Shown here piece by piece: positions 9,088-26,513 of a DNA stretch of 40,075 bases. Position 1 is the stretch's first letter, and every line of letters starts with the position of its first letter. Under the pieces are notes generated by a model. The model was not told where the DNA came from and made no database searches. It saw only the letters and a list, made by a program, of their open reading frames with translations. The stretch comes from an uncultured Gemmatimonadaceae bacterium (GTDB lineage Bacteria; Gemmatimonadota; Gemmatimonadetes; Gemmatimonadales; Gemmatimonadaceae), in contig CBQVAZ010000001.1 of the NCBI GenBank assembly GCA_967720205.1, positions 1 through 40,075 on the forward strand. Direction: 5' to 3'. Position numbers and translations under genes: made by a program.

Positions 9088-9205
9088 AAAGCGGTAGCGC
9101 GGACACACGCGGACGAACACAGGCAGACGCGGAGAACTGCTGTGGTTTAAGAAGGCGTTCGCGTTCGTCCTTGCTTTCTCCGCGTTGGTCCGCGCTCACG
9201 CTTTT
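9088..9205. repeat. Palindromic intergenic element, copy A (about 118 nt)
   Basis: AAAGCGGTAGCGCGGAC-ACACGCGGAC ... TCCGCGTTG-GTCCGCGCTCACGCTTTTG. It shares termini and internal ACGCGGA/TCCGCGT units with copies at 9915, 21684 and 26403. It starts 17 nt after the HIT stop codon. Confidence 0.85.
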
Positions 9206-9908
9206 GATCCTGGCCGTCACGGTGGCTTCGAGCGCGTTAGGTGCCCTCGCCGCGCAGCGCTACATGCGCCTGGAACCCAACGTTCCGTACGACGGCCGTT
9301 TCACGTTCGCGCGCCTGCGCTACGTCCGTTATCCGGGTTGGTCGTATGACTATCCCACCATGGAACGGCACCTCATGACCATGGTGCGTGAGGTAACGTC
9401 GCTCAGGCCACATATGACCGGCAGCAACATCCACACGATGGATGACCCGGCGCTGCTCAAGTATCCCGTCGCCTATCTCTCCGAGCCGGGTTACTGGGTG
9501 CCAAACGAATCTGAAGTGCTGGGGCTGCGCACGTACCTGGCGAAGGGCGGTTTCCTGATCGTCGATGATTTCATGCGCGGCGAGTGGGCGAACTTCGAGT
9601 ACCAGATGCGGCGAGTGCTGCCTAACGCACGGATCGACAGGCTGGACGTGTCGCACCCGATCTTCGACACGTTCTTTCATATCCGGACGTTGGAGATGAA
9701 GTATCCGCACGACCCGTATCTCGACGCCGAGTTTCTCGGGATCCACGAGGACAACGACCCGACCAAGCGGCTGTCCGTCGTCATCAATTACAACAACGAC
9801 ATCGGCGACTATATGGAGTGGTCGGATGACAACTGGTGGCCCGTGAACATCACGAACGAGGCGTACAAGTTCGCGATTAACTACATCATCTACGGTTTGA
9901 CGCGATAA
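9204..9908 (+). CDS. DUF4159 domain-containing protein
   Basis: Matches the DUF4159 pattern (FTFARLRY ... W.YDYP, GGFLIVDD, HPIF). The track start at 9081 would translate repeat copy A. The in-frame TTG at 9204 gives a short hydrophobic N-terminus (ILAVTVASSALGALAA). ATG 9261 is an alternative start. Confidence 0.65.
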   Translation: MILAVTVASSALGALAAQRYMRLEPNVPYDGRFTFARLRYVRYPGWSYDYPTMERHLMTMVREVTSLRPHMTGSNIHTMDDPALLKYPVAYLSEPGYWVPNESEVLGLRTYLAKGGFLIVDDFMRGEWANFEYQMRRVLPNARIDRLDVSHPIFDTFFHIRTLEMKYPHDPYLDAEFLGIHEDNDPTKRLSVVINYNNDIGDYMEWSDDNWWPVNITNEAYKFAINYIIYGLTR

Positions 9909-9914
9909 CGACCG

Positions 9915-10036
9915 AAAGCGGCAGGGCGGACGAACGCGGAGCAAGCCGAGACGAACGCGGACTGCAATTGGGCAGAACAACAGTCCCGTCCGCGTGGGTC
10001 TTGCAGTCGTCTGCGTTGGTCCGCGCTCCCGCTTTT
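9915..10036. repeat. Palindromic intergenic element, copy B (about 122 nt)
   Basis: AAAGCGGCAGGGCGGAC-GAACGCGGAG ... CTGCGTTG-GTCCGCGCTCCCGCTTTTG. It starts 7 nt after the DUF4159 stop codon. Confidence 0.85.
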
Positions 10037-10061
10037 GGGACGAAAGTTGCGCGGGAAACCG

Positions 10062-10091
10062 TTGACCGATCCCCCGGTTGCGCCCTAGACT
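10062..10091 (+). promoter_or_regulatory. Candidate sigma70-type promoter for rpsU
   Basis: TTGACC (10062-10067), an 18-nt spacer, then TAGACT (10086-10091), about 50 nt upstream of the rpsU start. A sequence match only. Confidence 0.35.
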
Positions 10092-10142
10092 AAAGACTTG
10101 CTCAACCAGGCCGCGAGGCGGCCGCCCAGGGGGGAATCACGT

Positions 10143-10331
10143 TTGTCCGAAGTCATTATTCACGACGAAGAGAACTTCGAGCGCGCGCTCAAGCGCTTCA
10201 AAAAGAAGATCGAGAAAGCCGGAATCCTTTCCGATCTTCGCAAGCACCGACACTATGAGAAACCGTCGGAGCGCCGGAAGCGCAAAATGAACGCGGCACG
10301 ACGCAAAGGCCGCCGGCCGCGGTCGGCCTGA
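10143..10331 (+). CDS. rpsU: 30S ribosomal protein S21
   Basis: [47 protein letters not shown] is classic S21. TTG 10143 follows an AGGGGGGA Shine-Dalgarno-like run. The track start at 10098 adds an unlikely 15-aa extension. Confidence 0.9.
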
Positions 10332-10448
10332 TCTCGTCGCGACGGCCGCGCCCACGTTAGGCGCCGCCGTGATCGCTTCCCCCGTACTCTCGAGCCCGGT
10401 CCGGCACGAACGCCAGATCGGGCTCGCCGCGTCTCTCCACTCCTCGCC

Positions 10449-12833
10449 ATGAATCGCCACGCCCTCGCGGTTCTCGAGTTCCCTCGCGTACTCGACCTTG
10501 TGGCCGAACGCTGCGCGTCCGGCCTCGGCGCGGAGCGCTTCCGGACCTTCATGCCGCACGACGATCGTGCTGCGCTCGAGCGCGAGCACGGGCGTGTCGC
10601 TGCGGTCCGAGCGCTACTAGACGGGGACGTCGGATGCCCATCGGAGACTATTCCCGACCTCGGCAAGGCGCTGGATCAATTGCGCGTCGTCGGAAGCGTG
10701 CTCACCGGGCAGTCGCTCCTCGGAGTCGCGACACTGCTGCGCTCGTCGCGCCTAACGAAAGTCGCGCTGGCCGATGAGCGGCAGCCTGCCATGGCGATCG
10801 CGCTCTTGGAGGACCTGCGCGGCCGGCTGGTCGTCGCGTCGCGCGATGAAGAACGTCTTACGCGCGCGCTCGAGCCCGATGGCACCCTGCGCGACGATGC
10901 GTCTCCGCTGCTTCGCAAATTGCGGCGCGAGTTGCGCGCTGGCGAAGGTGAGCTCGTCTCACTGCTCGAACGCACGATGCAGCGTCTCGATCCGCATCAT
11001 CGTGTTACCGACATGTCTGTCACGATGCGCAACGGTCGCTGGGTGATTCCAATCCGGCGCGAGGCGCGTACAGTCGTCGGGGGGCTCGTGCACGACGCGT
11101 CGGCGACAGGAAACACGCTTTTTGTCGAGCCGCCGGCAGCCATCGAAGCATGCAACCGTTTGCGGGAGCTCGAAGCGGACGAGGTCGCCGAAGTCGAGCG
11201 GCTGCTCGCCGAGCTTACTGACGCCGTTCGACCGCTTCACGAGCAACTCGAGGCCGCCTCGGACGCGCTCGTCGAGCTGGACACGCTTCGTGCACGCGCT
11301 CGGTTCGCGATCGACCTCCGCTGCGGGAGCGTATCGCTCGACGAGCCTGGGACAGGGTTCGCGATCAAGAACGGCCGGCACCCGCGGCTGCTGGCGCAAG
11401 GGATCGATGTCGTCCCCTTCGATCTGAGCATGGCACCTAACGAGCGCACGCTGCTCGTGTCCGGCCCGAACACCGGCGGTAAGACCGTCCTCCTCAAGTG
11501 CCTCGGCCTCTTTGCGGCGCTGGTGCAAAGCGGCATTCCGGCACCGGTTGCCGACGGAAGCCGCCTCGGCGTCTTCGACGATATCTTCGCCGACATCGGC
11601 GACGAGCAGTCCATAGAAGCCAGCCTCTCCACGTTCAGCGCGCACGTGAAGAACCTCGCTGAAATCCTGGACCGCGCGACGCCGCGTTCGCTCGTGCTCA
11701 TCGACGAGCTTGGATCGGGAACCGATCCTGTCGAAGGGGCCTCGTTAGGTGGCGCCATTCTGGAGGAGCTCACCCGGCGTGGCGTCCTGACGGTTGCCAC
11801 GACGCACCTCGGCGCGCTCAAAGACCTCGCCGCCGAGACACCCGGCGTCGTGAATGCATCACTGCAGTTCGACGAAGAAGCCCTGAGCCCGACCTATCAT
11901 CTCATCAAGGGGTTGCCGGGCCGCTCATACGGCATTCGGATCGCGCGGCGCCTCAAACTGTCCGACGCGATCATCGCCCGCGCAGAGGAGCGCGTGCCGA
12001 AGGCCGAACGCGACGTGAATGCGCTGCTGGCGAGCCTCGAGGAACGCGATCGTGCGCTGGCCGCGCGTGAGCGCGACGTCGCATCGTCCCAGGAATCCGC
12101 GTCGGCCCGCGCGAGACGCCTGGCAGAGCGCGAACAGCACGTGCGAGATCGTGAGCGCACTGTCGAACGTCAGTCGAGGCAGGAAGCGCGACGCTACCTC
12201 CTGGACGCCCGGGCCGACATCGAGCGCACGATCCGATCGCTCAAGAAAACAGAGCCGGATCAGATGGATGAAGCGGCGCGCGCGGCACGTCGCTCTGTCG
12301 AGGAGATGGCCGAAGCGCACTCCAAGGGCCTCGAGGCGCTCGACGCCGCGGAGCGCCGCAGCGTGGCACCTAACGAGCGAGCAATGGCCGACGAGCTCGC
12401 GGCCGGCGACACGGTGGATGTCCTGTCTCTTGGAGGGCGACCCGCGCTCGTCGTGGAAGTGCGCGGTGACGCCGCCCTCGTTGCGTTCGACGCAGTCAAA
12501 TTGACCGTTTCACTCTCGGATGTGCGTCGCAGCGCTGCAGGTGCGACGCCCGAGACGCGCATACCAGTGCTCGGCGACATCCCGGAGGTTCGCGCGAGTA
12601 CTGAGATCGACGTGCGCGGGATGCGGGTGGACGAAATCGACGATCTCGTTATGCAGGCGCTCGACGCGGCGATCCGCGCCGACCTCAAGTCGCTGCGCAT
12701 CATTCACGGCAAAGGGACGGGCGCGCTGCGCGCAAGGGTCGCGGAGATGCTCCAGAAGGACACGCGTGTCGCATCGTTCCGTCTTGGCGCCTGGAACGAG
12801 GGCGGTGCCGGCGTTACCGTAGCAGAACTGTGA
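10449..12833 (+). CDS. mutS2: Endonuclease MutS2 (MutS-family ATPase with C-terminal Smr domain)
   Basis: Walker A GPNTGGKT, MutS domain V (IDELGSGTDP), a long coiled coil, and a C-terminal Smr domain (IIHGKGTGALR). Confidence 0.92.
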   Translation: MNRHALAVLEFPRVLDLVAERCASGLGAERFRTFMPHDDRAALEREHGRVAAVRALLDGDVGCPSETIPDLGKALDQLRVVGSVLTGQSLLGVATLLRSSRLTKVALADERQPAMAIALLEDLRGRLVVASRDEERLTRALEPDGTLRDDASPLLRKLRRELRAGEGELVSLLERTMQRLDPHHRVTDMSVTMRNGRWVIPIRREARTVVGGLVHDASATGNTLFVEPPAAIEACNRLRELEADEVAEVERLLAELTDAVRPLHEQLEAASDALVELDTLRARARFAIDLRCGSVSLDEPGTGFAIKNGRHPRLLAQGIDVVPFDLSMAPNERTLLVSGPNTGGKTVLLKCLGLFAALVQSGIPAPVADGSRLGVFDDIFADIGDEQSIEASLSTFSAHVKNLAEILDRATPRSLVLIDELGSGTDPVEGASLGGAILEELTRRGVLTVATTHLGALKDLAAETPGVVNASLQFDEEALSPTYHLIKGLPGRSYGIRIARRLKLSDAIIARAEERVPKAERDVNALLASLEERDRALAARERDVASSQESASARARRLAEREQHVRDRERTVERQSRQEARRYLLDARADIERTIRSLKKTEPDQMDEAARAARRSVEEMAEAHSKGLEALDAAERRSVAPNERAMADELAAGDTVDVLSLGGRPALVVEVRGDAALVAFDAVKLTVSLSDVRRSAAGATPETRIPVLGDIPEVRASTEIDVRGMRVDEIDDLVMQALDAAIRADLKSLRIIHGKGTGALRARVAEMLQKDTRVASFRLGAWNEGGAGVTVAEL

Positions 12834-14701
12834 TTCCAGACGAGGAAGTCGATCGCATCCGCGAGTCGGCAGACATCGTTCAGATAATCGGCGAGCACGT
12901 TGCTCTCCGTCGCGTGGGGAACGACTGGCGCGGCCCGTGTCCCTTTCATCAAGGGACGCATCGCAACTTCTCGGTCTCGGCGCGCCGCAAGCTGTACCAC
13001 TGCTTCGTCTGCGACGAGAAGGGAAGCGTCTTCACGTTCCTGCAGCGGCGACTGGGTGTGGATTTCCCAACCGCCGTGCGCATGGTGGCTGAGAAGTCGG
13101 GGCTCGAAGTCCGCGAAGTGCGGCAACAGCGCGAGGGTCCCGATCCGCGCGAGCCGTTGTGGGAGATTCAGACCGCGGCGTCGGAATTCTTCACGTCCGT
13201 GCTTTGGGACGATCCGTTAGGCGCACCGGCGCGTGAGTACATCGCCGAGCGCGGCGTCTCCAAGGAGCTCGCCGATCGTTTCGGGCTCGGCTTCGCACCG
13301 CGCGAGATCGGTCTGCTGCGCGCGCATCTGACCTCGTTAGGCTACGAGGAGCCGAAGCTCCTGGAAGCTGGATTGCTCGTGCAGCGCGATGAGGGGGCCG
13401 AGCCCCGCCCGCGCTTCCGCGGCCGACTCATGTTCCCGATTCACGACCTGGCCAGCCACATTGCCGGCTTCGGCGGCCGTCTCATTGGGCCGGGCGAGCC
13501 CAAGTACCTCAACTCGGCCGAGTCGCCGATCTTCGTCAAGGGAAAACTGCTATACGGATTGCACACCGCCCGTTTGGCGGCGCGGCGCGAGGATCGCATC
13601 CTGCTCGTCGAGGGCTACTTCGACGCGTTGCGGATCGTCTCGGCCGGGCTAGAAAGCGTCGTGGCGCCGTTAGGCACCGCGCTCACCGGCGATCAGGCGC
13701 AGCTTCTCACTCGCTACACGAAGAACACCTATTTGCTGTACGACGGCGACCCGGCCGGACTCAAGGCCACATTCCGAGCAGGTGACGAGCTGCTGCGCAT
13801 GGGGGCGACGGTTCGCGTCGTGACGTTCCCCGACGGGGATGACCCCGACACGTTCGTCGCGCGCAACGGCGGTGCTGCCCTCGAGAAGCTGCTGGACCGC
13901 TCCCTCGACGTGTTCGAGAGAAAAATGCAGATCCTCGAGCGGGGTGGGTGGTTCGCGGATCTCCCGAAGCGTCGTGCCGCGTTGGATCGATTGCTGCCGA
14001 CGTTGCGCGCGACGGCTGATCCGCTGCTGCGCGAGCTCTATATTGCGAGAGCGTCCGAAACGTCTGGCGTCGATCGGACGGTGCTAACTCGGGAGGTGGG
14101 TGGTGGACAGCCGGCTGAAACCCCGGCGCGAGGAGTTGAGCCTCGCAATGCGCCTCCTCCCACGAGGGGCACTGTTGCTGGGGGGGAAACGCCAGATCGG
14201 ACCGTGCGTCGTGGCGACTTGGGGCGGCGCCCCACAGCGCGCGCAACGCCGGGAGGGGCAGCTGAGCGCGAGCTAGTGAGAGCGCTACTCAGGTTACCGC
14301 CGCTGGCGCCAAGTGCCGGTGAACGTTTACGATCGCACGCGATCACACTGCGTGATGCACGTTACCGTGAGATCCTGGAGCTGTTAATTGCGCGTGGAGG
14401 AGACGTGACACCTGAAATGGTCGCGAACGGCGGCGTGTTGAGCGACAATGCGATGTCGACGTACGACGAGCTTGTCGCCGCTCCCGAGGCGATTCAGGAC
14501 GTACAGCGGACGATCGACGACGCGATCGCTCGGCTCAGAGTGCGCGCTCTCGAGGACGAGGCGGCGGATATCGATCGTCAGGTAGCGATCGCAAACGCGT
14601 CGGAGCAGGATGCGCTGATGCAACGCAAAACGCTGGTCCGAGACGAGATAAAATCGTTAGGCGGCATCGGCGCTCGGCGCTATGGGGTCCGAGGACGCTG
14701 A
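12830..14701 (+). CDS. dnaG: DNA primase
   Basis: CHC2 zinc finger (CPFHQGTHRNFSVS ... YHCFVCDEKG), RNA polymerase core and TOPRIM (LVEGYFD, YDGDPAG). GTGA overlap with mutS2. Confidence 0.93.
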   Translation: MIPDEEVDRIRESADIVQIIGEHVALRRVGNDWRGPCPFHQGTHRNFSVSARRKLYHCFVCDEKGSVFTFLQRRLGVDFPTAVRMVAEKSGLEVREVRQQREGPDPREPLWEIQTAASEFFTSVLWDDPLGAPAREYIAERGVSKELADRFGLGFAPREIGLLRAHLTSLGYEEPKLLEAGLLVQRDEGAEPRPRFRGRLMFPIHDLASHIAGFGGRLIGPGEPKYLNSAESPIFVKGKLLYGLHTARLAARREDRILLVEGYFDALRIVSAGLESVVAPLGTALTGDQAQLLTRYTKNTYLLYDGDPAGLKATFRAGDELLRMGATVRVVTFPDGDDPDTFVARNGGAALEKLLDRSLDVFERKMQILERGGWFADLPKRRAALDRLLPTLRATADPLLRELYIARASETSGVDRTVLTREVGGGQPAETPARGVEPRNAPPPTRGTVAGGETPDRTVRRGDLGRRPTARATPGGAAERELVRALLRLPPLAPSAGERLRSHAITLRDARYREILELLIARGGDVTPEMVANGGVLSDNAMSTYDELVAAPEAIQDVQRTIDDAIARLRVRALEDEAADIDRQVAIANASEQDALMQRKTLVRDEIKSLGGIGARRYGVRGR

Positions 14702-14720
14702 TATGATGACAGGAGGCGTA

Positions 14721-15425
14721 GTGACACCTGAGATTCAACAACTGCTGGGCCTACAGTCGGTCGATGATCGCGTGGACGCGCTGCAGCGCGAGCTGGATGC
14801 GCTGGCGCCGCGACGCAAAGCGCTGGATGACGCGCGCGCTTCGGCAACGGCTGAACTGGCGGTGACAGAAAGCGGCATCGTTAACGACGACAAACGGCGC
14901 CGCGAGCTGGAGGAGCGACTTACCGATCATCGCTCGAAGCAGGAGCGCAACCTCGCCGCGCTGGATCAGGTAAAGCGCATCCGCGAGGCGACAGCCGCCA
15001 TGGCGCAGGTCGAGGCCGGCAGGCGGGTGCTGATCGAGGAAGAGCAGGAGCTGGATACGCTTGTTAGGCGTGTCGTCACCTCGCGCGACTATGCCGTCAA
15101 GCAGCGTCGTGCGATCGAAGCGCTGGAAACGGCGCAGGCTGACGAGCGCAAATCGCTGGATGAGCAAGGCGCGAGCATAAGCGCAGAGCTAGCAAAGGTG
15201 CGCGGAGACCGCGCGCAGCAGGCGGGAGGGATCGGCCGCACAATCCTTTCGCGCTACGATCGCATCCGTGCTCGGCGCCGCGGTCACGCCGTTTTTCCGC
15301 TCTCGGGCGGTGCGTGTGCCTGTTGCGATACGGCGATCCCGATGCACCGCCGGAATGCGATGGCGACATCCGGTGGCATCGATGTGTGCGAGGCTTGCGG
15401 CGTGCTGCTCTACGCGGAGAAATGA
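14721..15425 (+). CDS. C4-type zinc-ribbon coiled-coil protein (DUF164/COG1579-like)
   Basis: Long coiled coil followed by C-terminal CxxC ... CxxC (CACCDT ... CEACG). GTG 14721 lies 4 nt after a strong AGGAGG (14711-14716). The track start at 14682 is an alternative. Confidence 0.7.
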   Translation: MTPEIQQLLGLQSVDDRVDALQRELDALAPRRKALDDARASATAELAVTESGIVNDDKRRRELEERLTDHRSKQERNLAALDQVKRIREATAAMAQVEAGRRVLIEEEQELDTLVRRVVTSRDYAVKQRRAIEALETAQADERKSLDEQGASISAELAKVRGDRAQQAGGIGRTILSRYDRIRARRRGHAVFPLSGGACACCDTAIPMHRRNAMATSGGIDVCEACGVLLYAEK

Positions 15426-15463
15426 TGCTTGTTGCGTCACTCGCGCATTTCTAAGTTGCGCGT

Positions 15464-17191
15464 GTGACGCTCCCTTCAACCGTGCCTTGGGTTCGACCCG
15501 CGGCTCGCTGGATTTTTTCTCCGAGTGTGGATGAAGCGGTCGTGCGTCTGCTGGAACAAGAGGTCAAACTCCCCGCTCGCGTGTGCGCGCTTCTCGCGGC
15601 CCGCGGTTTCGGCGGACCAGACGCGGCCAAGCTCTATCTTCGCCCGCGCCTGAACCAACTGATCGACCCCGCACGAATGACGGGAGTCGACATAGCGGTG
15701 GAGCGCATCTCCCGCGCGATTGATACCGGGGAGCGCATTCTCGTGCACGGCGACTATGACGTCGACGGGATGTGTTCCACGACAATCATTACGCGTACGC
15801 TGCAAGCGCTGGGCGGGCAGCCGATTCCATTCATCCCGCACCGTCTGACTCACGGCTACGACCTAACGAGTGCCGGCGTTCAGGCAGCGAAGGAAAATGG
15901 CGTAACGCTCGTCATCACGTGTGACTGCGGCACGAGCGCGCTGCAACCGGTTGCCGAGCTCAAGGCGGCTGGGATCGACACGATCATCTGCGATCACCAC
16001 TTACCCAGTGGGCCACTCCCCGCAGCCGTCGCCGTGCTCAATCCGCGCGCGCTACACTGTGAGTACCCAGACAAGGATCTGTGCGCAGCGGGCGTCGTGT
16101 TCAAGCTCGCGCAGGCCCTGCTTCGAGCGCGCGGCCGGAGCGACACGTTCGCCATGCGCATGCTGGACCTCGTGGCGCTCGCCACCGTAGCAGACGTCGC
16201 GCCGCTGCGAAACGAGAACCGTACTCTCGTTAGGTATGGGTTGCGGCTGCTTCAGGAAACGAGCAACGTGGGACTGCGTGCGCTCATCCGCGCCGTGGGG
16301 CTCGAAGGACGTGAGATCAACGCCGGACGCGTAGGCTTCGTGCTCGCGCCGCGCCTCAACGCAGCGGGTCGAGTGGGGCACGGCATAGCGGGAGTCGAGC
16401 TGCTGCTCGAGCGCGACGAAGACGCTGCCCTCTCACGCGCACGCGAGCTGGAAGAGTTGAACCGCGAACGCCAGGCGATCGACAGGCAGACGCTGGACGA
16501 AGCGCGATCGATGGCCGAACAGCTGGATCTGGAATCGACGTACGGCATCGTGCTCACGTCCCCGTCCTGGCACCCGGGCGTCATCGGGATCGTGGCGTCG
16601 CGCCTCGTCGAGGAGTTCACGCGGCCGGTCATCCTCATCGCGACGGACGCCGGCATCGGCAAAGGCTCCGGCCGATCGACGTCGCGTTTCGATCTGCACG
16701 GTGGGATCCTCGCCTGCCGCGAACATCTGCAGCGCTTCGGAGGTCATCGCGTCGCGGCAGGGCTCACGATCGCGCAGGACAAGGTTGCAGCCTTCACCGC
16801 GGCATTCAACGCCGTGGCGCGCGAGCGCCTAACGGCGGACGATCTCATCCCGGAGCAGCGCGTCGATCTCGAGGTCCCCATCGACGACGCGCTCTGGAAG
16901 CTCGAGGGGGCGGTGCGGCACTTCGAGCCATTCGGCATGGGGAATCCGGCGCCGACCTTTCTTTCACGCGGGCTCACGCTCGCGGCACCACCGCGAACGG
17001 TCGGCTCCGATGGGCTCAAGCTGGCGCTTCGCGGGGAGCAGGGCTCGCTCGAGGCGATCGGCTGGGGGATGGCCGATCTCGCCGCGACGCTCGTGCCCGG
17101 AGCCGTGCTCGACGTCGCGTACCGTCTGGAGCGGGACGAGTATCAGGGAGAAGAGCGGATCGTCGCCAGGCTCTGCGCGGTGCGCGCCTAA
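15464..17191 (+). CDS. recJ: Single-stranded-DNA-specific exonuclease RecJ
   Basis: DHH motifs (VHGDYDVDG, ITCDCG, CDHH) and DHHA1 (GGHRVAAG). Confidence 0.93.
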   Translation: MTLPSTVPWVRPAARWIFSPSVDEAVVRLLEQEVKLPARVCALLAARGFGGPDAAKLYLRPRLNQLIDPARMTGVDIAVERISRAIDTGERILVHGDYDVDGMCSTTIITRTLQALGGQPIPFIPHRLTHGYDLTSAGVQAAKENGVTLVITCDCGTSALQPVAELKAAGIDTIICDHHLPSGPLPAAVAVLNPRALHCEYPDKDLCAAGVVFKLAQALLRARGRSDTFAMRMLDLVALATVADVAPLRNENRTLVRYGLRLLQETSNVGLRALIRAVGLEGREINAGRVGFVLAPRLNAAGRVGHGIAGVELLLERDEDAALSRARELEELNRERQAIDRQTLDEARSMAEQLDLESTYGIVLTSPSWHPGVIGIVASRLVEEFTRPVILIATDAGIGKGSGRSTSRFDLHGGILACREHLQRFGGHRVAAGLTIAQDKVAAFTAAFNAVARERLTADDLIPEQRVDLEVPIDDALWKLEGAVRHFEPFGMGNPAPTFLSRGLTLAAPPRTVGSDGLKLALRGEQGSLEAIGWGMADLAATLVPGAVLDVAYRLERDEYQGEERIVARLCAVRA

Positions 17192-17194
17192 CGC

Positions 17195-17710: not shown

Positions 17711-17716
17711 CGACGC

Positions 17717-18202: not shown

Positions 18203-18215
18203 CCCTGGGACTCCG

Positions 18216-19220: not shown

Positions 19221-19246
19221 ACAGGCAGGCCCAACGGAGAAAGGCA

Positions 19247-19579
19247 ATGAGTTTTGCAATACATAAGGAGGGTGAAGTCTGCGTAGTGGGCGTGGAGGGG
19301 CAGTTGATCGTTGGCAATCGCCAGGAGCTCAAGCAGAAGGTGCTGGATGAGATCGAGCGCGGCGAACGCAAGTTTTTAGTCGACTTCAGTCAAACCGGAT
19401 ACATCGACAGCTCGGGCCTCGGCGTGCTGGTCTCGCTGTCCAAGAAGATTCGTGAGCATGGTGGCGAGCTGCGCCTAACCAACCTTAACGAAGACTTGAA
19501 GACGCTTTTCGAGCTGACCAAGCTCGACACGCTGTTTCAGATCGCGGAGACTCGCGAGCGCGCGCTGGAAAGTTTCTAG
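19247..19579 (+). CDS. STAS-domain anti-sigma-factor antagonist (SpoIIAA/RsbV-like)
   Basis: About 110 aa with the conserved phosphorylatable-Ser context YIDSSGLGVLV. ATG 19247 follows a GGAGAAAGG Shine-Dalgarno. Confidence 0.85.
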   Translation: MSFAIHKEGEVCVVGVEGQLIVGNRQELKQKVLDEIERGERKFLVDFSQTGYIDSSGLGVLVSLSKKIREHGGELRLTNLNEDLKTLFELTKLDTLFQIAETRERALESF

Positions 19580-19610
19580 GCGCAGCGAGATCCGTCGCCT
19601 AACGAGCAAC

Positions 19611-20081
19611 GTGGTCAACCTGCCGGTCCCCCCATCCTCCGGCTCCGCTTCCGCTCCACACGAGTGGGCCGTGTTACCGTACGATCTTCGCTTCCCGAGC
19701 GACGTACGCTTCGTGGAACGCGCCGTCGAGCTGGTCGTCGACCGCTGCCGCTCGGCGGGTTTCCCCGCGCACGCGCTCGCGTTCAACGTTCGCGTCGCGC
19801 TGACCGAGGCGCTGTCGAACGCGATTCTTTATGGCAATCGCGAGGACGAAAACAAAGCCGTGCGCGTGACGGCCAACATCACGGACGCCGGCTTGGTGCT
19901 CGAAGTTTACGACCAGGGGAAGGGATTCAATCTCGACGAATGCACGAATGACCCGACTCGTCTGGAGAACCTGCTGCGCGAGGATGGACGCGGACTCTTC
20001 CTGATGCGGCGGCTGATGGATCGGGTGGAGCAGGTATCGAATGGCCACAACATGGTCCGCCTAACGCTCCGTCGCACGTGA
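19611..20081 (+). CDS. Anti-sigma regulatory factor, serine-protein kinase (HATPase_c, RsbW/SpoIIAB-like)
   Basis: N box EALSNAILYGN, G1 DQGKGF and G2 GRGLFLM in a 156-aa protein next to the STAS gene. Confidence 0.8.
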   Translation: MVNLPVPPSSGSASAPHEWAVLPYDLRFPSDVRFVERAVELVVDRCRSAGFPAHALAFNVRVALTEALSNAILYGNREDENKAVRVTANITDAGLVLEVYDQGKGFNLDECTNDPTRLENLLREDGRGLFLMRRLMDRVEQVSNGHNMVRLTLRRT

Positions 20082-21679
20082 AGGAGCTCGGGGCGATCCT
20101 CGATCGCTTCGCGGAGGCGCTGGGCTGCCCGGCTGTCGTGTGGCAGCACCCCGATGGAGACGACACACTCATCCCCGAGTACGGACGCCCGCGAACGCCG
20201 CTCTTTCACTCGGCGCTCAAGTGGCCAGCGGCGCCGGTGCCGGCCGAGGTGTTGACGGACGACGGCATTTTTATCGTCGCGAGCATTCCGGGCCCGAAGC
20301 GCACGGTTCTGACGTTAGGCCCGACGCAGCATCCAACGCCGCAACTGCACGCGTACGCTGCCTTTCTGGCTCCTGTCATCGCGCACTTCTATCAGTCCGC
20401 GCTCGAAGTCGAGCATGCGGCGTGGGAGCTCGCAGAGCGCTATGAAGAGATCAATCTGCTCTACACGACGAGCGAGATCCTCGGCCGCACGGTTTCGTTG
20501 GAAGAGGCGACGCGGCGCATTCTGAGCGAGATCTGCGAGACAGTTGGAGCGCGTCGGGCGGCGATTCTCGTGCACGATCGCATCACCGACACGTTGCAGG
20601 TCGTCACGGCGCTTGGCTTTGCCGCTGAAGACGCAATACCCATCGCTTCCAGCGACCCAAACGCTGTGTCCGCGCGCGTCTTCCGCGAGCAGCGCGCGGT
20701 GCTCGTGGAGGAAGGGGAGATGCCGTGCGACGCCGAGCGACCGTACCGACGCGGGATGTTGTTGTCGGTGCCGATTCTGTGGACGAATCCCGGATCGTCG
20801 TCAGGGCTGCCGTTAGGTGTCGTGAACCTTTCCGAGCGCCGAACAGGAGAGACGTTCAGCGCCGGGGACGAAAAGCTCGTGTTCTCGATCGCGACGCAGA
20901 TCGGCACGGCAATCCAGAATACGCGTCTCGTGCGCGCGTCCGTGGCGCAGCAACGCTTGCAGCAGGAGATGCAACTGGCGCACGACCTACAGATGAAGCT
21001 GCTGCCGAGCGTGGAGAGCGTCGCTCCGGAAGCGACGGTCGCGGCGCGCGTCGCGCCGGCGGACAGCGTGGGAGGTGACTTCTATCACCTCTTCCGGTTA
21101 GGCGGCGGTCGCACGGGCGTTCTGATCGGCGACGTTTCAAGTCATGGGTATCGCGCGGCGTTGATTATGGCCCTCGCGATGAGCGCTGCAGCCATCCACG
21201 CGGCGGTGACGGAAGCGCCGGCAGATCTGCTCAATCGCATGCGCACGTCATTGCAGGACGAGCTGTCTTCGACCGAGATGTTCATCTCGATGTTCTATGC
21301 TGTCATCGATCCCAAGGCGGGGCGTCTCCGGTATGCCAACACGGGACATCCGCATGCGTTCATTGTACGTGGTAATGGCGTCGCGCAGCGCCTGGCGGCT
21401 TTGGATCCGCCGTTAGGCATGCAGGCGAGCCGGCCAAAGGAGTCGGAGCAGCCCTGGCGTGCCGACGATGACCTGCTCGTCCTTTTCACTGACGGCCTCA
21501 GCGACGCGCGCGACCGCTTCGATCGCAAGCTCGGCGAGCAGCGCTTGTTGGATGTGGTGCGCGAAGCGCGCGACGAGCGTCCGAGCGCTGTCGTCGATCG
21601 CGTCTTCGCGATGGTTCAGTCACACACAGTTGGAACGCCTCGGCGCGACGACCTCACACTCGTTGTGGCTCGCACGTAA
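20078..21679 (+). CDS. GAF-domain PP2C-family (SpoIIE/RsbU-like) serine phosphatase
   Basis: Central GAF-like region followed by PP2C motifs (GGDFYHLF, IGDVSSHG, LFTDGLSDA, DDLTLVV). GTGA overlap with the kinase gene. Confidence 0.85.
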   Translation: MKELGAILDRFAEALGCPAVVWQHPDGDDTLIPEYGRPRTPLFHSALKWPAAPVPAEVLTDDGIFIVASIPGPKRTVLTLGPTQHPTPQLHAYAAFLAPVIAHFYQSALEVEHAAWELAERYEEINLLYTTSEILGRTVSLEEATRRILSEICETVGARRAAILVHDRITDTLQVVTALGFAAEDAIPIASSDPNAVSARVFREQRAVLVEEGEMPCDAERPYRRGMLLSVPILWTNPGSSSGLPLGVVNLSERRTGETFSAGDEKLVFSIATQIGTAIQNTRLVRASVAQQRLQQEMQLAHDLQMKLLPSVESVAPEATVAARVAPADSVGGDFYHLFRLGGGRTGVLIGDVSSHGYRAALIMALAMSAAAIHAAVTEAPADLLNRMRTSLQDELSSTEMFISMFYAVIDPKAGRLRYANTGHPHAFIVRGNGVAQRLAALDPPLGMQASRPKESEQPWRADDDLLVLFTDGLSDARDRFDRKLGEQRLLDVVREARDERPSAVVDRVFAMVQSHTVGTPRRDDLTLVVART

Positions 21680-21683
21680 TCGT

Positions 21684-21795
21684 CAGCGCGGACCAACGCG
21701 GACCACTACAGGACCAACGCGGATTTAATCTTTGAAAACGCCCGAAAATCTGCGTTCGTCCGCGTCCGTCCGTGTGAGTCCGCGCTACCGCTTTT
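21684..21795. repeat. Palindromic intergenic element, copy C (about 112 nt; outer left arm truncated)
   Basis: CAGCGCGGAC-CAACGCGGAC ... CAACGCGGAT ... CTGCGTTCGTCCGCGTCCGTCC ... GTCCGCGCTACCGCTTTTA. It starts 5 nt after the phosphatase stop codon. Confidence 0.8.
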
Positions 21796-21806
21796 AGGTT
21801 TTCGAA

Positions 21807-22673
21807 ATGCACCATAAGGCTCGGAAGCGGCTGGGACAGCATTTCCTCAACGACCGGCGCATTCTCGCGCGCATCGTCGAGGCGGTGGCCCCGAGACCTA
21901 ACGAGACTATCATCGAGATCGGCCCTGGCCAAGGCTCGCTGACGGAGCGGCTCGCGCAGCGCGCGGCGCGCCTCGTAGCCATCGAGCTGGATCGCGACCT
22001 CGCAGCCGGGCTGCGACAGCAATTCGCCGACCGGCCGAACGTGCAGATCGTGGAAGGCGACGTGCTCGATATCCGGCTCGCGGAGTTGAGCGACGGGGCG
22101 CAATGGAGTGTCACGGGGAACGTCCCGTACTACATAACGACGCCGATCCTCTTTCATGCGCTGGCCTCGCCTCGGCCGCGTCGGATTGTCTTGCTCGTCC
22201 AACGCGAGGTCGGCGATCGACTGGCCGCCGCAGCGGGGAGCGAAGCGTACGGCGCGCTGTCGGTGACTGCGCAGGCTGTCGCGCGCGTCGAGCGTCACGG
22301 GCGCGTCCCAGCGGGTTCGTTTCATCCCAAGCCAGCCGTCGATTCGGTGATTGTGAGCCTAACGCCTCTGGATGAGCCGATCGTGACGACACACGAAGAG
22401 CCGGCGTTCAAGAGGCTCGTTCAAGGCGCGTTCTCCCAGCGACGCAAGCAGATGGTACGCGTCGTGCGCAGCTTGTTCGATATCGCGGCAGAGCAGGCGA
22501 CAACGCTGCTCGACGCCTGTGCGATCGACGTCAGTGTTCGTCCTGAAGTCCTGGCTCCGCAGACTTTCGTCGATCTGCTGCGCGCGGCCAAGCGCGCGGG
22601 ATTCGAACAGTTGCCCGAAACTAGCGGTCGCCGCCCAGGCCGCTCCCGGAGCGGTTCGACAGAGCGAAGCTGA
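21807..22673 (+). CDS. rsmA: 16S rRNA (adenine1518/1519-N6)-dimethyltransferase RsmA/KsgA
   Basis: KRLGQHFL, EIGPGQGSLT, GNVPYYITTPIL. The 3' end overlaps the convergent rex by about 53 nt. Confidence 0.9.
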   Translation: MHHKARKRLGQHFLNDRRILARIVEAVAPRPNETIIEIGPGQGSLTERLAQRAARLVAIELDRDLAAGLRQQFADRPNVQIVEGDVLDIRLAELSDGAQWSVTGNVPYYITTPILFHALASPRPRRIVLLVQREVGDRLAAAAGSEAYGALSVTAQAVARVERHGRVPAGSFHPKPAVDSVIVSLTPLDEPIVTTHEEPAFKRLVQGAFSQRRKQMVRVVRSLFDIAAEQATTLLDACAIDVSVRPEVLAPQTFVDLLRAAKRAGFEQLPETSGRRPGRSRSGSTERS

Positions 22674-23280
22674 GTCCTTCCAGCTCCATTGCCATGTTCA
22701 CGCTGCGCAGCGCGACGTCGTTAGGGACGCGCAGCTGAACTGGGGCGAAGTTGAGAATCGCGCGAATCCCGGAGCGCACCAATCGATCGACCAGGCCTTG
22801 CGCGTCTTCGCCGGGCACAGTGAGCACTGCGATGTCGGGCTTGTCGCGCGGCACGTCGCGTTCGATCTGCGCGATGTCGCGCACTGTGTGTTGTTCGCCA
22901 GTTACCGAAACGACCTGACCGACTTTCTGTGGGTCGCGGTCATACACGGCTGTCACGAGGAAGCCGCGTCGCTTGAATCCTTCGTATTGCGCCAAGGCTG
23001 TGCCAATTTTTCCGGCTCCCACAATGATTACGCTCCATTGCCGGCCGAGCCCGAGGATGTCGCGCAGAGATTCGGTAAGCTCGTCGACGGCGTAGCCGAG
23101 TCCGCGTTTGCCGAAGGAACCGAAGAACGACAAGTCTTTGCGTACCTGCGCCGACGTCGTCCCGCCGCGCTTCGCCAACTCATCGCTCGAGATCGTAGTG
23201 ACTCCGCGCCGCGCAGACTCTTCGAGAAAGCGCAGGTAGGCTGAGAGACGACGGACGGTGCTATCGGCGATGCGTTTCAC
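22621..23280 (-). CDS. rex: Redox-sensing transcriptional repressor Rex
   Basis: Typical Rex N-terminus (KRIADSTVRRLSAYLRFL ... SSDELA ... QVRKDLSFFGSFGKRGLGY) and Rossmann motif IVGAGKIG. I chose GTG 23280. The track start at 23355 would translate through the Rex operator. Confidence 0.88.
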   Translation of the reverse strand: MKRIADSTVRRLSAYLRFLEESARRGVTTISSDELAKRGGTTSAQVRKDLSFFGSFGKRGLGYAVDELTESLRDILGLGRQWSVIIVGAGKIGTALAQYEGFKRRGFLVTAVYDRDPQKVGQVVSVTGEQHTVRDIAQIERDVPRDKPDIAVLTVPGEDAQGLVDRLVRSGIRAILNFAPVQLRVPNDVALRSVNMAMELEGLSFALSNRSGSGLGGDR

Positions 23281-23324
23281 GACGGCGGGAGTGGAGCGAG
23301 GCGGGCAGGTCTGGTAGGGATGCC

Positions 23325-23342
23325 TTGTGAATCGTTTCACAA
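23325..23342. promoter_or_regulatory. Rex operator (perfect inverted repeat TTGTGAA-N4-TTCACAA)
   Basis: TTGTGAATCGTTTCACAA read directly. It matches the published Rex box consensus TTGTGAAnnnnTTCACAA. It lies 45 nt upstream of the rex start, in the rex/arcA divergent region. Confidence 0.8.
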
Positions 23343-23546
23343 GATAGCAATCCACTGGTGTCGATACCAGTTAGGTGCGCTGCTATAGGTAGCCATGCAT
23401 CCCCACAAACAGCTTGGAGTCTGCAGTAATGAGTCGTCCGTACTCAGAGCCGACGGATAACGGAGCACTGACCACTGCGGACTCCACGCTGCTTTGGTTC
23501 TGTGGAACTCAGCAGACCGCCCCAACCGTCCGCTTACATTTTGGCC

Positions 23547-24782
23547 ATGCCCGTCAACATTCCGTCGGAAATCGGCCAGCTGAAATCGGTCCTCGTGCAC
23601 ACGCCCGGCGAGGAGCTGCTTGCTGTCACGCCATCCACGGTCGCTGACTACCTGTACGTCGACATTATCGACGTCGAGGGAGCGAATCGAGAGCATCGCC
23701 GGTTCGTTGCCGTGCTCGAGCGCTTCGCGACTGTGCTGCAGGTTGGCGATCTCCTGCGTGATGTGCTGGACGACCCACAGGCGCGTGACGCGGTCATCCG
23801 CGAGACGATGGACTTCTATCCGTCGGAGCCGCTGGGGCGCGAATTGGCCGAGGCGTCCGCGGAGACTCTCTCGCGCTGGCTCATCGAGGGGCGACGGGAC
23901 GCACCCGGCGCGTTAGGCAGTGCGCTGAACGCCGAGGGGTATCAGCTCCCGCCGTTGCCGAACCTGTACTTCACGCGCGACACGGCGATGGCTGTGAACC
24001 AGCACGTGCTGATCGGCGCCATGCGCCACGGCGTTCGCTGGTCGGAAGAGCTCATCATGAGGGCGCTCTTTCGGCATCACCCCGCGCTTGCAAATCGCGG
24101 CGTGCTCTACGACGGCTCGGCGGAGCGGCGATTGTCGTATTCGCTGGAGGGCGGCGACGTTCATCCGCTGCGCCCCGACACGGTCATGCTCGGCTTCAGC
24201 GATCGTTCGAGTCCGGCGGGGATCGACCATCTCGCCCGCCTGCTGTTCGAGCAGACGACCGTTGAGAATCTGGTTGTGGTGGTCATGCCCAAAGAGAACA
24301 CGGCGATCCACTTAGACATGATCTTCACACAAGTCGATCGCGAATTATGTGTGATCTACCCGCCGCATTTCCTGGGTCCCGAGCGGCTGACTGTGCTTGT
24401 GTGGCGTAAGGGAGAGTCGCAGCTGCGGGAGTCGCCTAACGTCTTCGCCGCGCTGGAAGAGTGCGGCCTGCATATGGAGCCGATCTTCTGCGGCGGCAAC
24501 AAGCGGAACATGCAGGAGCGCGAGCAGTGGGCGTCGGGCTGCAACTTCATGGCGTTGCGGCCGGGGCTTGTCACGTCGTATGCGCGAAACGAGGCGACGC
24601 TCCATGAAATGGAAAAGATGGGCTTCTCGCTCGTGTCTTCGGTTTCGTTCCTGACCGGAGGGCGCCGCGTGAGCGATTCCGATCGCGCGGTGATTACGTT
24701 CGAGGGAAGCGAGTTGGTGCGCGGTGGCGGCGGACCGCGGTGCATGAGTTGCCCGATCGAGCGAGACGACCCTTGGGCATAG
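23547..24782 (+). CDS. arcA: Arginine deiminase-like (guanidino-group-modifying enzyme superfamily)
   Basis: N-terminal IPSEIGQLKSVLVHTPGEEL, about 410 aa, and a C-terminal catalytic Cys context GGGGPRCMSCPIERD. ATG 23547 was chosen over the track start at 23502. Confidence 0.72.
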   Translation: MPVNIPSEIGQLKSVLVHTPGEELLAVTPSTVADYLYVDIIDVEGANREHRRFVAVLERFATVLQVGDLLRDVLDDPQARDAVIRETMDFYPSEPLGRELAEASAETLSRWLIEGRRDAPGALGSALNAEGYQLPPLPNLYFTRDTAMAVNQHVLIGAMRHGVRWSEELIMRALFRHHPALANRGVLYDGSAERRLSYSLEGGDVHPLRPDTVMLGFSDRSSPAGIDHLARLLFEQTTVENLVVVVMPKENTAIHLDMIFTQVDRELCVIYPPHFLGPERLTVLVWRKGESQLRESPNVFAALEECGLHMEPIFCGGNKRNMQEREQWASGCNFMALRPGLVTSYARNEATLHEMEKMGFSLVSSVSFLTGGRRVSDSDRAVITFEGSELVRGGGGPRCMSCPIERDDPWA

Positions 24783-24839
24783 CTCAACGATCGTCAACTG
24801 AGAACGCAGCCACGGGTTGCGGAGGCCGGCTAGCCTAAC

Positions 24840-25517
24840 GTGAGGCACACTGAGACTCAGGGAGTTCCGCTAAACGAGCTACGGTTTGCCGTTGTCGACA
24901 CCGAAACGACGGGAACCAGCGTCTCGGGCGGAGACCGGATCACTGAGGTCGCGATCGTGGAGGTACAGGGCGGATACGTTGGGCGGACTTTGAGCACCCT
25001 CGTGTACCCGCAGCGGCCGATTCCACAGTGGATCACGTCGCTCACGGGGATCAGCGACGCGATGGTGCGTCACGCGCCGCCGTTCCTGGAGATCGCGGAG
25101 CAAGTCCGCGAGGCGTTAGGTGCCGGCGTCTTCGTCGCGCACAACGTCGGTTTCGACTGGACCTTCCTCCACGCGGAGCTGGAACGGACGACGGGGGATG
25201 GTTTCGACATGGATGCCCCGCGCCTGTGCACCGTGCGTCTCGCGCGCATTTTTCTCCGTCGTCTCGAGCGCCGCTCGCTGGATCATCTCGCGAGCTACTA
25301 CGGCGTTTCGATCCGAGAACGGCACCGCGCGTTAGGGGACGCCGTCGCGACGGCGCACTGCTTCACGTATCTCCTCGAAGCGGCCCGGCGACTGGGTCTC
25401 ATGACGTTGGATGATCTCGAGTCGCACATTGCGGAGTGGCGCAGTCGTCACCGAGGGCGGCGAAGAAAGCGACGCTCGTTTCTGCCGTCTTCATTCGCGC
25501 CGACGCACATCGCGTGA
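24840..25517 (+). CDS. DnaQ/DEDDh-family 3'-5' exonuclease (DNA pol III epsilon-like)
   Basis: Exo I VVDTETTG, Exo II AHNVGFDWTFL and Exo III HRALGDAVAT, plus a basic C-terminal tail. Confidence 0.8.
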   Translation: MRHTETQGVPLNELRFAVVDTETTGTSVSGGDRITEVAIVEVQGGYVGRTLSTLVYPQRPIPQWITSLTGISDAMVRHAPPFLEIAEQVREALGAGVFVAHNVGFDWTFLHAELERTTGDGFDMDAPRLCTVRLARIFLRRLERRSLDHLASYYGVSIRERHRALGDAVATAHCFTYLLEAARRLGLMTLDDLESHIAEWRSRHRGRRRKRRSFLPSSFAPTHIA

Positions 25518-26398
25518 CTGCGTTAGGCCCGCTCGTGCAGTCGCGTTCACTCGGCGGCTGGCGTATCCACGCGATTCAGGCTGGCGGGCAGAAGCTCGAC
25601 GGCGGTGCGATGTTCGGTGTCGTGCCGAAGCCTCTTTGGCAGCGGCGCATCGCGCCGGATGAGCGCAACCGTATCCAGTTAGGCATGCGCTGTCTATTGA
25701 TAGAGCATCCCGATGGACTCGTGCTCATCGACAGCGGGGCGGGGAACAAGGAGAACGAGAAGTTCCACGAGATCTACGGTCTCGAGAACGCCGGGAGCGA
25801 CGGCCGCACGTGGTTGGAGGACGGCGTGAGAGAGGCAGGCTTTGCGACCGACGATATTCGGATTGTCATCAATACGCATTTTCACTTCGATCACGCCGGC
25901 GGCAACACGTATGACGACGCCGATGGCGTCGTGCGCGCGTCATTCCCGAATGCGAAGTACATGGTGCAGAGCGGCGAGTATGACTTCGCGACGCGACCTA
26001 ACGAGCGGACGTCGGCGAGCTATTTCACGCGCAACTGGGACTGCATCCGCGAAGCCGGCCGATTGGAGTTGGTCGAGGGCGAGCCCGAGATCATGCCGGG
26101 AATCCGGCTCATGCGCACGCCGGGACATGTCCCGCATCACCAGTCGGTATTGCTGACGAGCGCGGGTGAGACCGCTTTCTTCCTGGGAGATCTTTGTCCG
26201 ACCGCGGCGCACCTGCCGCTTGCGTGGATCATGGGGTACGACGTTGAGCCTCTCGTCACGCTGGAGTCCAAGCGTCGCATGCTGACGCGGGCGCGGGATG
26301 AGAGTTGGTTGGTGATCTTCGAGCACGACGCCGCTGTTACCTGGGGCAGGGTTGTTCAAGACGGAAAGGCCTTCGCGCTGAATCCTGCTGCCCAGTAG
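25514..26398 (+). CDS. MBL-fold metallo-hydrolase
   Basis: HxHxDH motif (THFHFDHAGG) and later TPGHVPHH. GTG 25514 overlaps the exonuclease stop as GTGA. The track start at 25436 lies inside the upstream gene. Confidence 0.75.
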   Translation: MTALGPLVQSRSLGGWRIHAIQAGGQKLDGGAMFGVVPKPLWQRRIAPDERNRIQLGMRCLLIEHPDGLVLIDSGAGNKENEKFHEIYGLENAGSDGRTWLEDGVREAGFATDDIRIVINTHFHFDHAGGNTYDDADGVVRASFPNAKYMVQSGEYDFATRPNERTSASYFTRNWDCIREAGRLELVEGEPEIMPGIRLMRTPGHVPHHQSVLLTSAGETAFFLGDLCPTAAHLPLAWIMGYDVEPLVTLESKRRMLTRARDESWLVIFEHDAAVTWGRVVQDGKAFALNPAAQ

Positions 26399-26402
26399 TC
26401 AG

Positions 26403-26513
26403 AAAGCGTGAGCGCGGACGCACGCGGAGAACACCAAGGCCAACGCGGACCGGCTCTTTTTTAATTCGTTCAAGGCCGCGTTCGTCTCGGCAGTTGTCCG
26501 CGCTGCCGCTTTT
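26403..26513. repeat. Palindromic intergenic element, copy D (about 111 nt)
   Basis: AAAGCGTGAGCGCGGAC-GCACGCGGAG ... CAACGCGGAC ... GCCGCGTTCGTC ... GTCCGCGCTGCCGCTTTTG. It starts 5 nt after the MBL stop codon. Confidence 0.85.

Follow-up and report, generated by a model that had tools for sequence, protein, structure and literature searches.

A family of word-array palindromes at gene 3′ ends in soil Gemmatimonadaceae, with arms homologous to those that bracket GxxExxY genes

Proteobacteria have provided much of what has been learned about interspersed palindromic repeats. Correia/NEMIS elements of Neisseria, ERIC/IRU elements of enterobacteria and RUP elements of Streptococcus pneumoniae, all imperfect palindromes of 100–150 bp with terminal inverted repeats, are transcribed intergenic sites near genes and can supply terminators or processing sites. 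The intervening sequences of 23S rRNA hold a small open reading frame (ORF), for four-helix-bundle proteins of PF05635, in the loop of an extended hairpin. REPINs, the REP doublets of Pseudomonas and enterobacteria, are extragenic hairpins of ∼100–120 bp built from inverted conserved modules, which number tens to hundreds of copies, leave no target-site duplication and persist vertically over long periods in genome-specific variants; they go together with RAYT, one small nuclease-type gene between inverted repeats. The comparison with REPINs and RAYT draws in part on three papers (PMC3116915, PMC2817692, PMC3733652). No description of palindromic repeats from Gemmatimonadota was found in the searchable literature. 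Here we analyze a stretch of 40,075 nucleotides (contig CBQVAZ010000001.1 of assembly GCA_967720205.1; hereafter, the window) from an uncultured Gemmatimonadaceae bacterium, which carries four palindromic elements, copies A to D, next to the 3′ ends of genes. As judged from the homology of their arms, these copies are shown to be the ORF-less form of a unit that elsewhere brackets a gene for a GxxExxY protein. The family belongs among the interspersed palindromic repeats and is closest in behavior to REPINs.

Like REPINs, the elements consist of two inverted modules around a spacer, form hairpins of about 100 nt and occur in many extragenic copies. They differ from REPs in lacking the GTAG/CGTC head of these 20–40-nt sequences, the termini being AAAGCG-NN-AGCGCGGAC instead, and in having arms of four phased words, whereas a REP is one palindrome. 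Moreover, the gene between the arms encodes a PD-(D/E)XK protein of the GxxExxY family, whereas RAYT is an HUH Y1 transposase (PF01797). No RAYT turned up in the fetched loci (∼550 kb), which were not searched exhaustively for it, and the sole bracketed gene found there was GxxExxY/PF13366. The elements also resemble miniature inverted-repeat transposable elements (MITEs): they have terminal inverted repeats of 17 nt, measure 84–524 nt and thus stay below ∼600 bp, and, as in Correia, ERIC and RUP elements, come in size variants with the same ends. In contrast to MITEs, however, no target-site duplication is seen, while Correia elements duplicate TA, and no parent with a DDE transposase and the same ends was present in 549 kb of loci. 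The periodic words in the arms further separate the family from Correia, ERIC and RUP elements, which belong to other phyla and are unrelated in sequence; there is no Rfam match either. The intervening sequences of 23S rRNA offer a lead of another kind, in that they too place a small, scattered gene in the loop of a long hairpin inside a host transcription unit, but the present elements lie at intergenic junctions of mRNAs, involve another protein family and have numerous ORF-less copies.

An initial annotation of the window had proposed four copies of one palindromic architecture. This was borne out by the sequence itself, by a repeat finder, which puts copies A–D at the head of both its direct and its inverted repeat families, and by a covariance model (CM) trained on 34 family members. 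When the whole window was scanned with filters off, the CM returned four matches only (9086–9207, 9913–10038, 21675–21797 and 26401–26515), with scores of 81–104 bits and E-values of 1e-18 to 1e-24. Since the next-best matches had E-values of ∼0.5, we conclude that the family is real and not a product of low complexity. Copy A (9088–9205; 97.8 bits on the + strand, 92.1 on the − strand) lies between the stop codon of a HIT gene (9071) and the DUF4159 domain, its left terminus being AAAGCGGTAGCGCGGAC (9088–9104) and its right terminus GTCCGCGCTCACGCTTT (9189–9205). Copy B (9915–10036; 104.1 and 103.0 bits on the two strands) starts 6 nt past the DUF4159 stop codon (9908). Copy C (21677–21795; 97.1 and 93.5 bits) ends 12 nt before the rsmA ATG (21807); its left end, which was thought to be missing, is present in a degenerate form, TAATCGTCAGCGCGGAC, and overlaps the TAA stop codon of the PP2C/SpoIIE gene (21677–21679). 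Copy D (26403–26513; 80.7 and 77.5 bits) starts 4 nt past the stop codon of a hydrolase gene of the metallo-β-lactamase (MBL) fold (26398). The distances claimed from the HIT (9071), DUF4159 (9908), PP2C/SpoIIE (21679) and MBL (26398) stop codons were likewise correct. In their arms the window copies are 66–78% identical to each other, and copy A is 66–74% identical to its paralogues in the window. As predicted, each copy folds into a long interrupted hairpin: the RNA minimum free energies (MFE) of A, B, C and D are −60, −75.5, −55 and −50 kcal/mol, with z-scores against dinucleotide shuffles of −4.8, −6.1, −5.3 and −2.1, respectively. Of the four, copy D folds least stably, and its right arm is shorter.

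Beyond the window, the CM recognized about 60 further places (∼63 places in 80 loci; top score, 118 bits), located on soil and rhizosphere Gemmatimonadota contigs. A strict pattern of both termini, applied to 185,579 species genomes, detected four loci of one metagenome-assembled genome, Gemmatimonadaceae SAR189; matches of the pattern in a Verrucomicrobiaceae and a Planctomycetota locus were set aside as chance or unrelated. With the right terminus alone, 78 soil or rhizosphere metagenome contigs were matched. The DUF4159 and RsmA proteins encoded beside the elements have homologues that, where named, are assigned to Gemmatimonadaceae, Gemmatimonadales or Gemmatimonadota, and the sequencing runs that hold window sequence are soil and rhizosphere metagenomes. 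The terminus pattern had no match in the viral contigs of IMG/VR, so the family is not phage-borne there. A search with Rfam models was negative as well, both for the window at gathering score and for 9060–10060 at E ≤ 1. Conceivably, GC-rich intergenic hairpins could look alike without forming a family, and the word CGCGGAC taken alone is indeed not over-represented in the window (28 found versus 30 expected, that is, at chance level). However, 14 of these 28 occurrences fall inside the four elements, which cover ∼1% of the window, and a chance likeness is refuted by the CM E-values and by the dozens of full-length homologues across the 80 loci; we give it next to no credence. The proposed REP- or MITE-like dispersed family is upheld by the further places and the sharp termini described below.

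Each arm is composed of four units of 10–11 nt with the word (A/G)CGCGGAC, the third unit being degenerate. The arm consensus reads AAAAGCGG-n-AGCGCGGAC-n-AACGCGGAC-AAnnnCAAGAC-n-AACGCGGA, followed by an inner GACTGC/GCAGTC stem and, at the center of the element, a short A/T-rich loop. The words are phased at 10–11 nt and 21 nt, corresponding to one or two helical turns. The terminus is conserved over 17 nt, with (A)AAAGCG-NN-AGCGCGGAC on the left and the mirror GTCCGCGCT-NN-CGCTTT(T) on the right, and its boundary is sharp: conservation ends after CGCTTT, with a fourth T in 61% of 143 distinct ends, and background composition follows. Three other identities were considered and rejected. Integron attC sites (R''/R' core sites RYYYAAC...GTTRRRY behind promoterless cassette ORFs, beside intI) do not have AAAGCG/CGCTTT termini or syntenic housekeeping genes as flanks; clustered regularly interspaced short palindromic repeats (CRISPR) were ruled out on termini and context; and the A/T-rich loop, inspected by eye only for a promoter or an integration host factor site, was dropped because the motif was inconsistent.

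The consensus is a near-perfect palindrome, and the scores of the hidden Markov model (HMM) or CM on the two strands differ by 0–6 bits at every copy. Given this symmetry, the earlier statement that all copies share one orientation has little meaning; orientation is barely definable. The sole strand asymmetry in the window, three A at the left end versus four T at the right end, was unrelated to gene direction in other loci. In the alignment of 34 sequences, 91.5% of the cells of the 37-pair hairpin form standard pairs, compared with 34–43% when the partner was slid. Double-sided changes were found in 35 cells versus 15 ± 3 in shuffles, most of them from a subfamily with the words ACGCAGAT/ATCTGCGT, and compensated variants on both arms include GCAGAT/ATCTGC and CACCGCGGAC/..CGCGGTG. 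The words are >95% conserved. The spacer positions between them, on the other hand, are hypervariable, and their covariation is at chance level in this alignment (columns 9/128, for example, pair in 15 of 34 sequences versus 17.2 expected). Read in the orientation of the upstream gene, there was no significant sense-strand G-U excess (70 G-U-type versus 51 A-C-type mismatches) and no significant MFE difference between the strands (mean, −1.5 kcal/mol). Since the words are conserved, the spacers behave as by chance and neither strand is favored, the words are constrained as sequence, and we infer that their phasing reflects recognition by a protein rather than structure alone.

One could imagine that this protein is a nucleoid-associated or regulatory DNA-binding protein of the host, that the elements are arrays of its binding sites and that the hairpin potential is incidental. 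The phasing by 10–11 and 21 nt, the conservation of words as sequence with free spacers and the symmetry of the element all agree with such a role. Nonetheless, the complementarity of the arms continues through the inner stem, which contains no words; the elements are placed at gene 3′ ends and not at promoters; and no candidate protein is at hand, whereas the same arms bracket a nuclease gene, which is a more specific partner. We therefore regard host binding-site arrays as very unlikely.

Elements with common termini measure 84–99, 117–122, 135–184, ∼250–260, 350–408 and 524–527 nt; the class of 117–122 nt (class I, to which the window copies belong) dominates, and the elements of 350–408 nt are nested palindromes. 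No pairs of termini 530–6000 nt apart were present in 549 kb of loci. The longest units, of 524–527 nt, encode GxxExxY only. In the 524-nt unit of locus L039, which is identical in L046 and L060, family termini enclose an ORF that matches TIGR04256 ‘GxxExxY protein’ (1.8e-33) and PF13366 PDDEXK_3 (3e-34); the genes of this kind specify ∼125 amino acids. A tblastn search of all loci uncovered three further distinct homologues with 53–61% identity (L048/L031, L078 and L037), and these genes have a family arm 40–50 nt from their end, on both sides where the contig permits.

As an unbiased test, we searched a protein database (3,250 matches at E ≤ 1e-10) and fetched the DNA for five GxxExxY genes chosen by similarity alone. 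All five were flanked by inverted repeats 403–469 nt apart, and in four cases these contained CGCGGA(C/T) words. In L090/91 and L092, the neighbors of the gene are kdpA and kdpB, which are encoded on the other strand, and the arms are AAAGCGTCAGCGCAGAC...GTCCGCGCTGACGCTT (units at L090 3567–4086 and L092 ∼6050–6580); the class I HMM or CM matches these flanking arms in L090/L091 and L092. The arms around the gene in L094/93, from Gemmatimonadaceae, are AAGCGTTCGCGCGGAC...GTCCGAGCGCACGCTTTT. In L096/97 (59% GC), the unit (L096 9962–10428) separates ispD from ispF, with the gene on their strand, and its CGCGGAT words form an inverted pair of 32 nt with 97% complementarity; L095 has a 21-nt, 90% inverted pair made of other words. 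With these five genes included, arms were present around GxxExxY in every case for which DNA was examined. Homologous arms, phased CGCGGA(C/T) words and family termini are combined in these units, and ORF-bearing arms are homologous to ORF-less ones for ∼55 nt, through the termini and the degenerate third unit (TGCAGTT). In addition, 69 of 120 GxxExxY homologues matched a rough pattern for arm-like terminal peptides, such as MNADERR, TRTHADG and KKIRVDPRESAAN.

The AlphaFold2 model of GxxExxY (mean predicted local distance difference test score, 89.4) has Cas4 SSO0001 and lambda-exonuclease-type nucleases as best fold matches. The D...E-x-K motif is kept, with E40, D79, E89 and K91 invariant or nearly so. 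A sequence search of the PDB with GxxExxY gave nothing meaningful, the relatives being PD-(D/E)XK proteins at the level of fold. PF13366 was listed with the function ‘Unknown’ in a survey of PD-(D/E)XK proteins (PMC3424549), and our literature search found no paper linking PF13366/GxxExxY to repeats. Separately, nested giant palindromes of 350–408 nt, with MFEs of −222 to −240 kcal/mol, were observed in L007 (1292–1685), L050 (606–1013) and L074 (1204–1553). Here, outer arms of the family enclose a second array of words of the ACGGAT type and a third, core palindrome; these layered arrays suggest that palindromes insert into the centers of other palindromes.

The reading that we favor, with a probability of roughly 55%, is that the window copies are ORF-less, REPIN/MITE-like derivatives of a hairpin-bracketed GxxExxY gene and are maintained in trans by a word-recognizing protein. 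The words would then be sites, spaced by one turn of the helix, that a protein acting in trans recognizes by their sequence; the GxxExxY nuclease is the best candidate for this protein. Such a protein might copy, convert or maintain the palindromes without target-site duplication, as RAYT does for REPINs, and its action would keep the word variant the same throughout one genome, but not from one genome to the next. Copies might persist where they are least harmful, or be targeted to such places: just past stop codons, and especially in convergent gaps. Class I would comprise the non-autonomous copies amplified from one ORF-less master, as the homology over the whole length and the size mode of 117–122 nt argue against independent decay.

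Orthologous loci show how the words vary. By nucleotide identity with the window, these are L015 (98–99%), L009/L059 (∼90%), L087 (83%), L085 (78%), L088/L099 (∼76%) and L018/L032/L041/L089 (75%); L098 is also orthologous (RsmA, 85% amino-acid identity). Sites A and B are occupied throughout the orthologues with differing word variants, site A in all that were examined (L009/L059, L018, L041, L085, L087 and L089), with half an element in L088. The window has the AGCGCGGAC word at all four sites, and L009 likewise has GCGGAC words. Words of the GCAGAT type, however, are found at site A of L085, L087, L018 and L089, in the latter also at site B, and the compensated CACCGCGGAC/..CGCGGTG outer stem is present at site B of L087 and sites C and D of L098, where the site C variant has a CACCGCGAAC/GGCGGTGGAG outer stem and the site D element is decayed. 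Copy A is 82% identical to its closer orthologue in L009, but only 61–65% identical to the positional orthologues in L085, L087 and L089, and thereby less like these than like its window paralogues. The word variant thus goes with the genome and not with the position; elements must accordingly have been replaced or converted, or have co-evolved with a factor specific to each genome.

Decay is also observed. The genome GCA_973472135.1 (L088/L099) has half an element at site A, a termini-only mini-hairpin at site B of L088 (AAAGCGGGAGCGCG-TTGG-TCCGTGCTGCCGCTGTTT) and a 40-nt remnant at site C; site D of L099 is empty, the stop codon being directly followed by the conserved infC promoter region. 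In L015, with flanks 98–99% identical to those of the window, 20 nt between two GTCCGCG words are missing from the right arm of site C; the near-identical strains of L025 and L030 differ by an arm indel of ∼22 nt between words; and L067 carries a 21-nt tandem array. Each ORF-less palindrome could be the relic of an independent GxxExxY insertion, from which the ORF was lost by palindrome-stimulated deletion and with no non-autonomous amplification. This would account for the frequent internal deletions, including the sites reduced to termini (L088 site B, L099 site C) or to one arm (L088 site A), for the arm indels between words and for the homology of ORF-bearing and ORF-less arms through the third unit. 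Independent deletions would, however, yield heterogeneous junctions, whereas class I has a common inner stem, GAGACTGC...GCAGTCTC, a similar type of loop and a length of 117–122 nt across ∼35 unrelated loci. Furthermore, tblastn detected no truncated GxxExxY ORF as an intermediate in 549 kb. We consider independent relics unlikely.

Several observations weigh against the favored derivation from a GxxExxY unit with maintenance in trans. No GxxExxY gene is present within the 40-kb window, and the ORF-less elements are linked to the arms of GxxExxY by sequence homology rather than by function. The terminus had served to select the contigs with the first GxxExxY cases, and the unbiased sample comprises five genes. 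The GxxExxY genes between kdpA and kdpB are positionally conserved (74–91% amino-acid identity between L090/91 and L092), and positional orthologues of the window elements are occupied across 75–98% nucleotide identity, so that any movement must be slow or ancient. We observed neither transposition nor excised forms, nor any pair of recent, identical copies, and the window copies have diverged to the arm identities given above. A search for empty sites among Logan metagenome contigs revealed no joints that skip A or B; the contigs end there. In four soil metagenomes that contain this organism, all Logan contigs break at A and B (9048–9175 and 9880–10007, depth 0), which fits with repeats or strain variation fragmenting short-read assemblies.

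The placement of the elements at gene 3′ ends, as noted in the initial annotation, was confirmed. In the loci, genes were called with a simple caller based on G+C content at third codon positions, which is crude for starts but exact for stops. Most elements have a stop codon within 0–20 nt of one end or of both, often filling convergent gaps, and among the deduplicated intergenic regions of all loci they were enriched between convergent genes: 20 of 90 convergent regions carry an element (22%), compared with 25 of 317 tandem (8%) and 3 of 77 divergent regions (4%). Housekeeping genes whose synteny is conserved flank the elements of the window. No target-site duplication was detected in 64 elements at four boundary offsets, where direct-repeat lengths equaled those of the shuffled control. 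The statement that no transposase is nearby is true for the window; elsewhere, the arms bracket the gene for the GxxExxY PD-(D/E)XK nuclease.

This placement is also what would be expected if the elements were intrinsic-terminator modules recruited by the host to operon ends and kept in sequence for termination. They abut stop codons, are enriched in convergent gaps and have a GC-rich basal stem with an A-tract and a U-tract on its two sides, as in bidirectional terminators (tail, CCGCUUUU). Copies B and D are situated directly upstream of independent promoters or transcript starts. Downstream of copy B, between it and mutS2, lies rpsU for ribosomal protein S21 (∼10098–10331), with a promoter-like site (TTGACC-18-TAGACT, 10062–10091), conserved in four orthologous loci (L085/L087/L088/L089), 26 nt past the element. 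Downstream of copy D, infC RNA contigs from three soil metatranscriptomes start at 26574–26582, ∼60 nt past the element. In addition, canonical terminator-like sites occur in the window at shuffle-level counts (14 versus 13.1; 21 versus 13.1).

Other features do not agree with a terminator. The annotated T-run at the end of the hairpin exists, but it is short, with three or four T, so that of the features of intrinsic terminators the GC-rich stem is present and the U-rich tail (typically at least 5 U in 8) is lacking. Accordingly, a scan of the window for canonical terminators called none of copies A–D; it did call a hairpin at 7211–7236 (T5) and the infC leader hairpin (T6). The stem of the elements is ∼50 bp long with regular mismatches, and their primary sequence is common to different loci. 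Termination requires structure, but neither a common 17-nt terminus nor phased words, and the spacers do not covary. No strand is preferred, as the G-U excess (70:51) and the strand MFE difference of −1.5 kcal/mol indicate. Element copies also occur within tight operon junctions: copy C lies 12 nt before the rsmA start and copy A overlaps the N-terminal coding region of DUF4159, leaving no room for a downstream promoter, and related units are located inside the kdpFABC and ispDF operons. At these places, efficient termination would silence the downstream genes. Lastly, one relative manages without elements at the same junctions. Recruitment as terminators is therefore doubtful as the reason for the existence of the family. 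As a secondary effect, leaky bidirectional termination or 3′-end protection is plausible; the GC-rich basal stem followed by UUU(U) on either strand may have this action.

The RNA evidence consists of assembled metatranscriptome contigs, none of which lies over copies A–D. The infC contigs from the three metatranscriptomes do, however, run through the infC leader hairpin (26678–26702, followed by T6), so that transcription is not fully stopped there and the hairpin acts as a leader structure that is read through, or as an attenuator. This hairpin had been associated with the family through a shared core word. As CGCGGAC is at chance level in the window, the hairpin is conserved in L098 as well as in the element-poor L099, and RNA reads through it, the word match does not signify membership. 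The other called site, at 7211–7236, is a terminator-like hairpin of 11 pairs, 10 of them GC, followed by TTTTT; it is positioned after the dnaJ stop codon (7170) and within the longest prmA ORF, and prmA probably starts downstream of 7167.

While copy A follows a gene, as described, it also forms part, in frame, of the ORF 9081–9908, the longest for the DUF4159 gene downstream, the Pfam domain of which begins at residue 75. The n/h region of the DUF4159 signal peptide, PRWSALTLL, comes from the right arm of the element. Orthologous DUF4159 proteins show the same arm-derived peptides, and in L088, where only the right arm is kept, this arm is still coding. Candidate starts are ATG 9081, TTG 9171 and TTG 9204, and public gene calls run into copy A. 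In being read in frame as an N-terminal extension of DUF4159, copy A and its orthologues resemble Rickettsia palindromic elements. These, however, are unrelated in sequence and host; in the window, copy A is alone among the four in overlapping an ORF, and the translation of its left arm is putative.

The window holds a second word-array palindrome at 27901–27981, between the rplT stop codon (27877) and the pheS start (27983). It is unrelated in sequence to the family studied here, but follows the same design principle with a 7-nt period: (GGTCAGA)x4, a GCGGAAAACCGC center and (TCTGACC)x4, with an MFE of −52 kcal/mol. A solo (TTTGACC)x4 array is found at 171–200, and the pattern was counted nine times in the window versus 2.5 expected. 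At the rplT/pheS junction, L098 has a different palindrome and L099 none (16-nt gap). A broader, tentative idea, which we think has a lesser chance of being correct, is that the GxxExxY proteins (PF13366/TIGR04256), a large family of small PD-(D/E)XK nucleases spread over many bacterial phyla, are trans partners of such word-array palindromes in general, as an HUH-independent counterpart of the REPIN–RAYT system. Each GxxExxY protein would then recognize the words in its own arms and in ORF-less copies, and propagate or homogenize them; the four window elements, and perhaps the (GGTCAGA)x4 palindrome, would be non-autonomous members.

In practical terms, the elements break short-read assemblies and mislead the calling of start codons, as for DUF4159. 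The family provides an example, defined by sequence, of palindromic repeats with periodic words, genome-specific concerted variants at orthologous sites and a link to a nuclease gene. If this link is functional, it would assign a role to the GxxExxY proteins, which have thousands of members, and it would reveal that resident replicators like REPINs have evolved around another class of enzyme. The elements may also influence the polarity of operons in Gemmatimonadota, a phylum that is abundant in soil.

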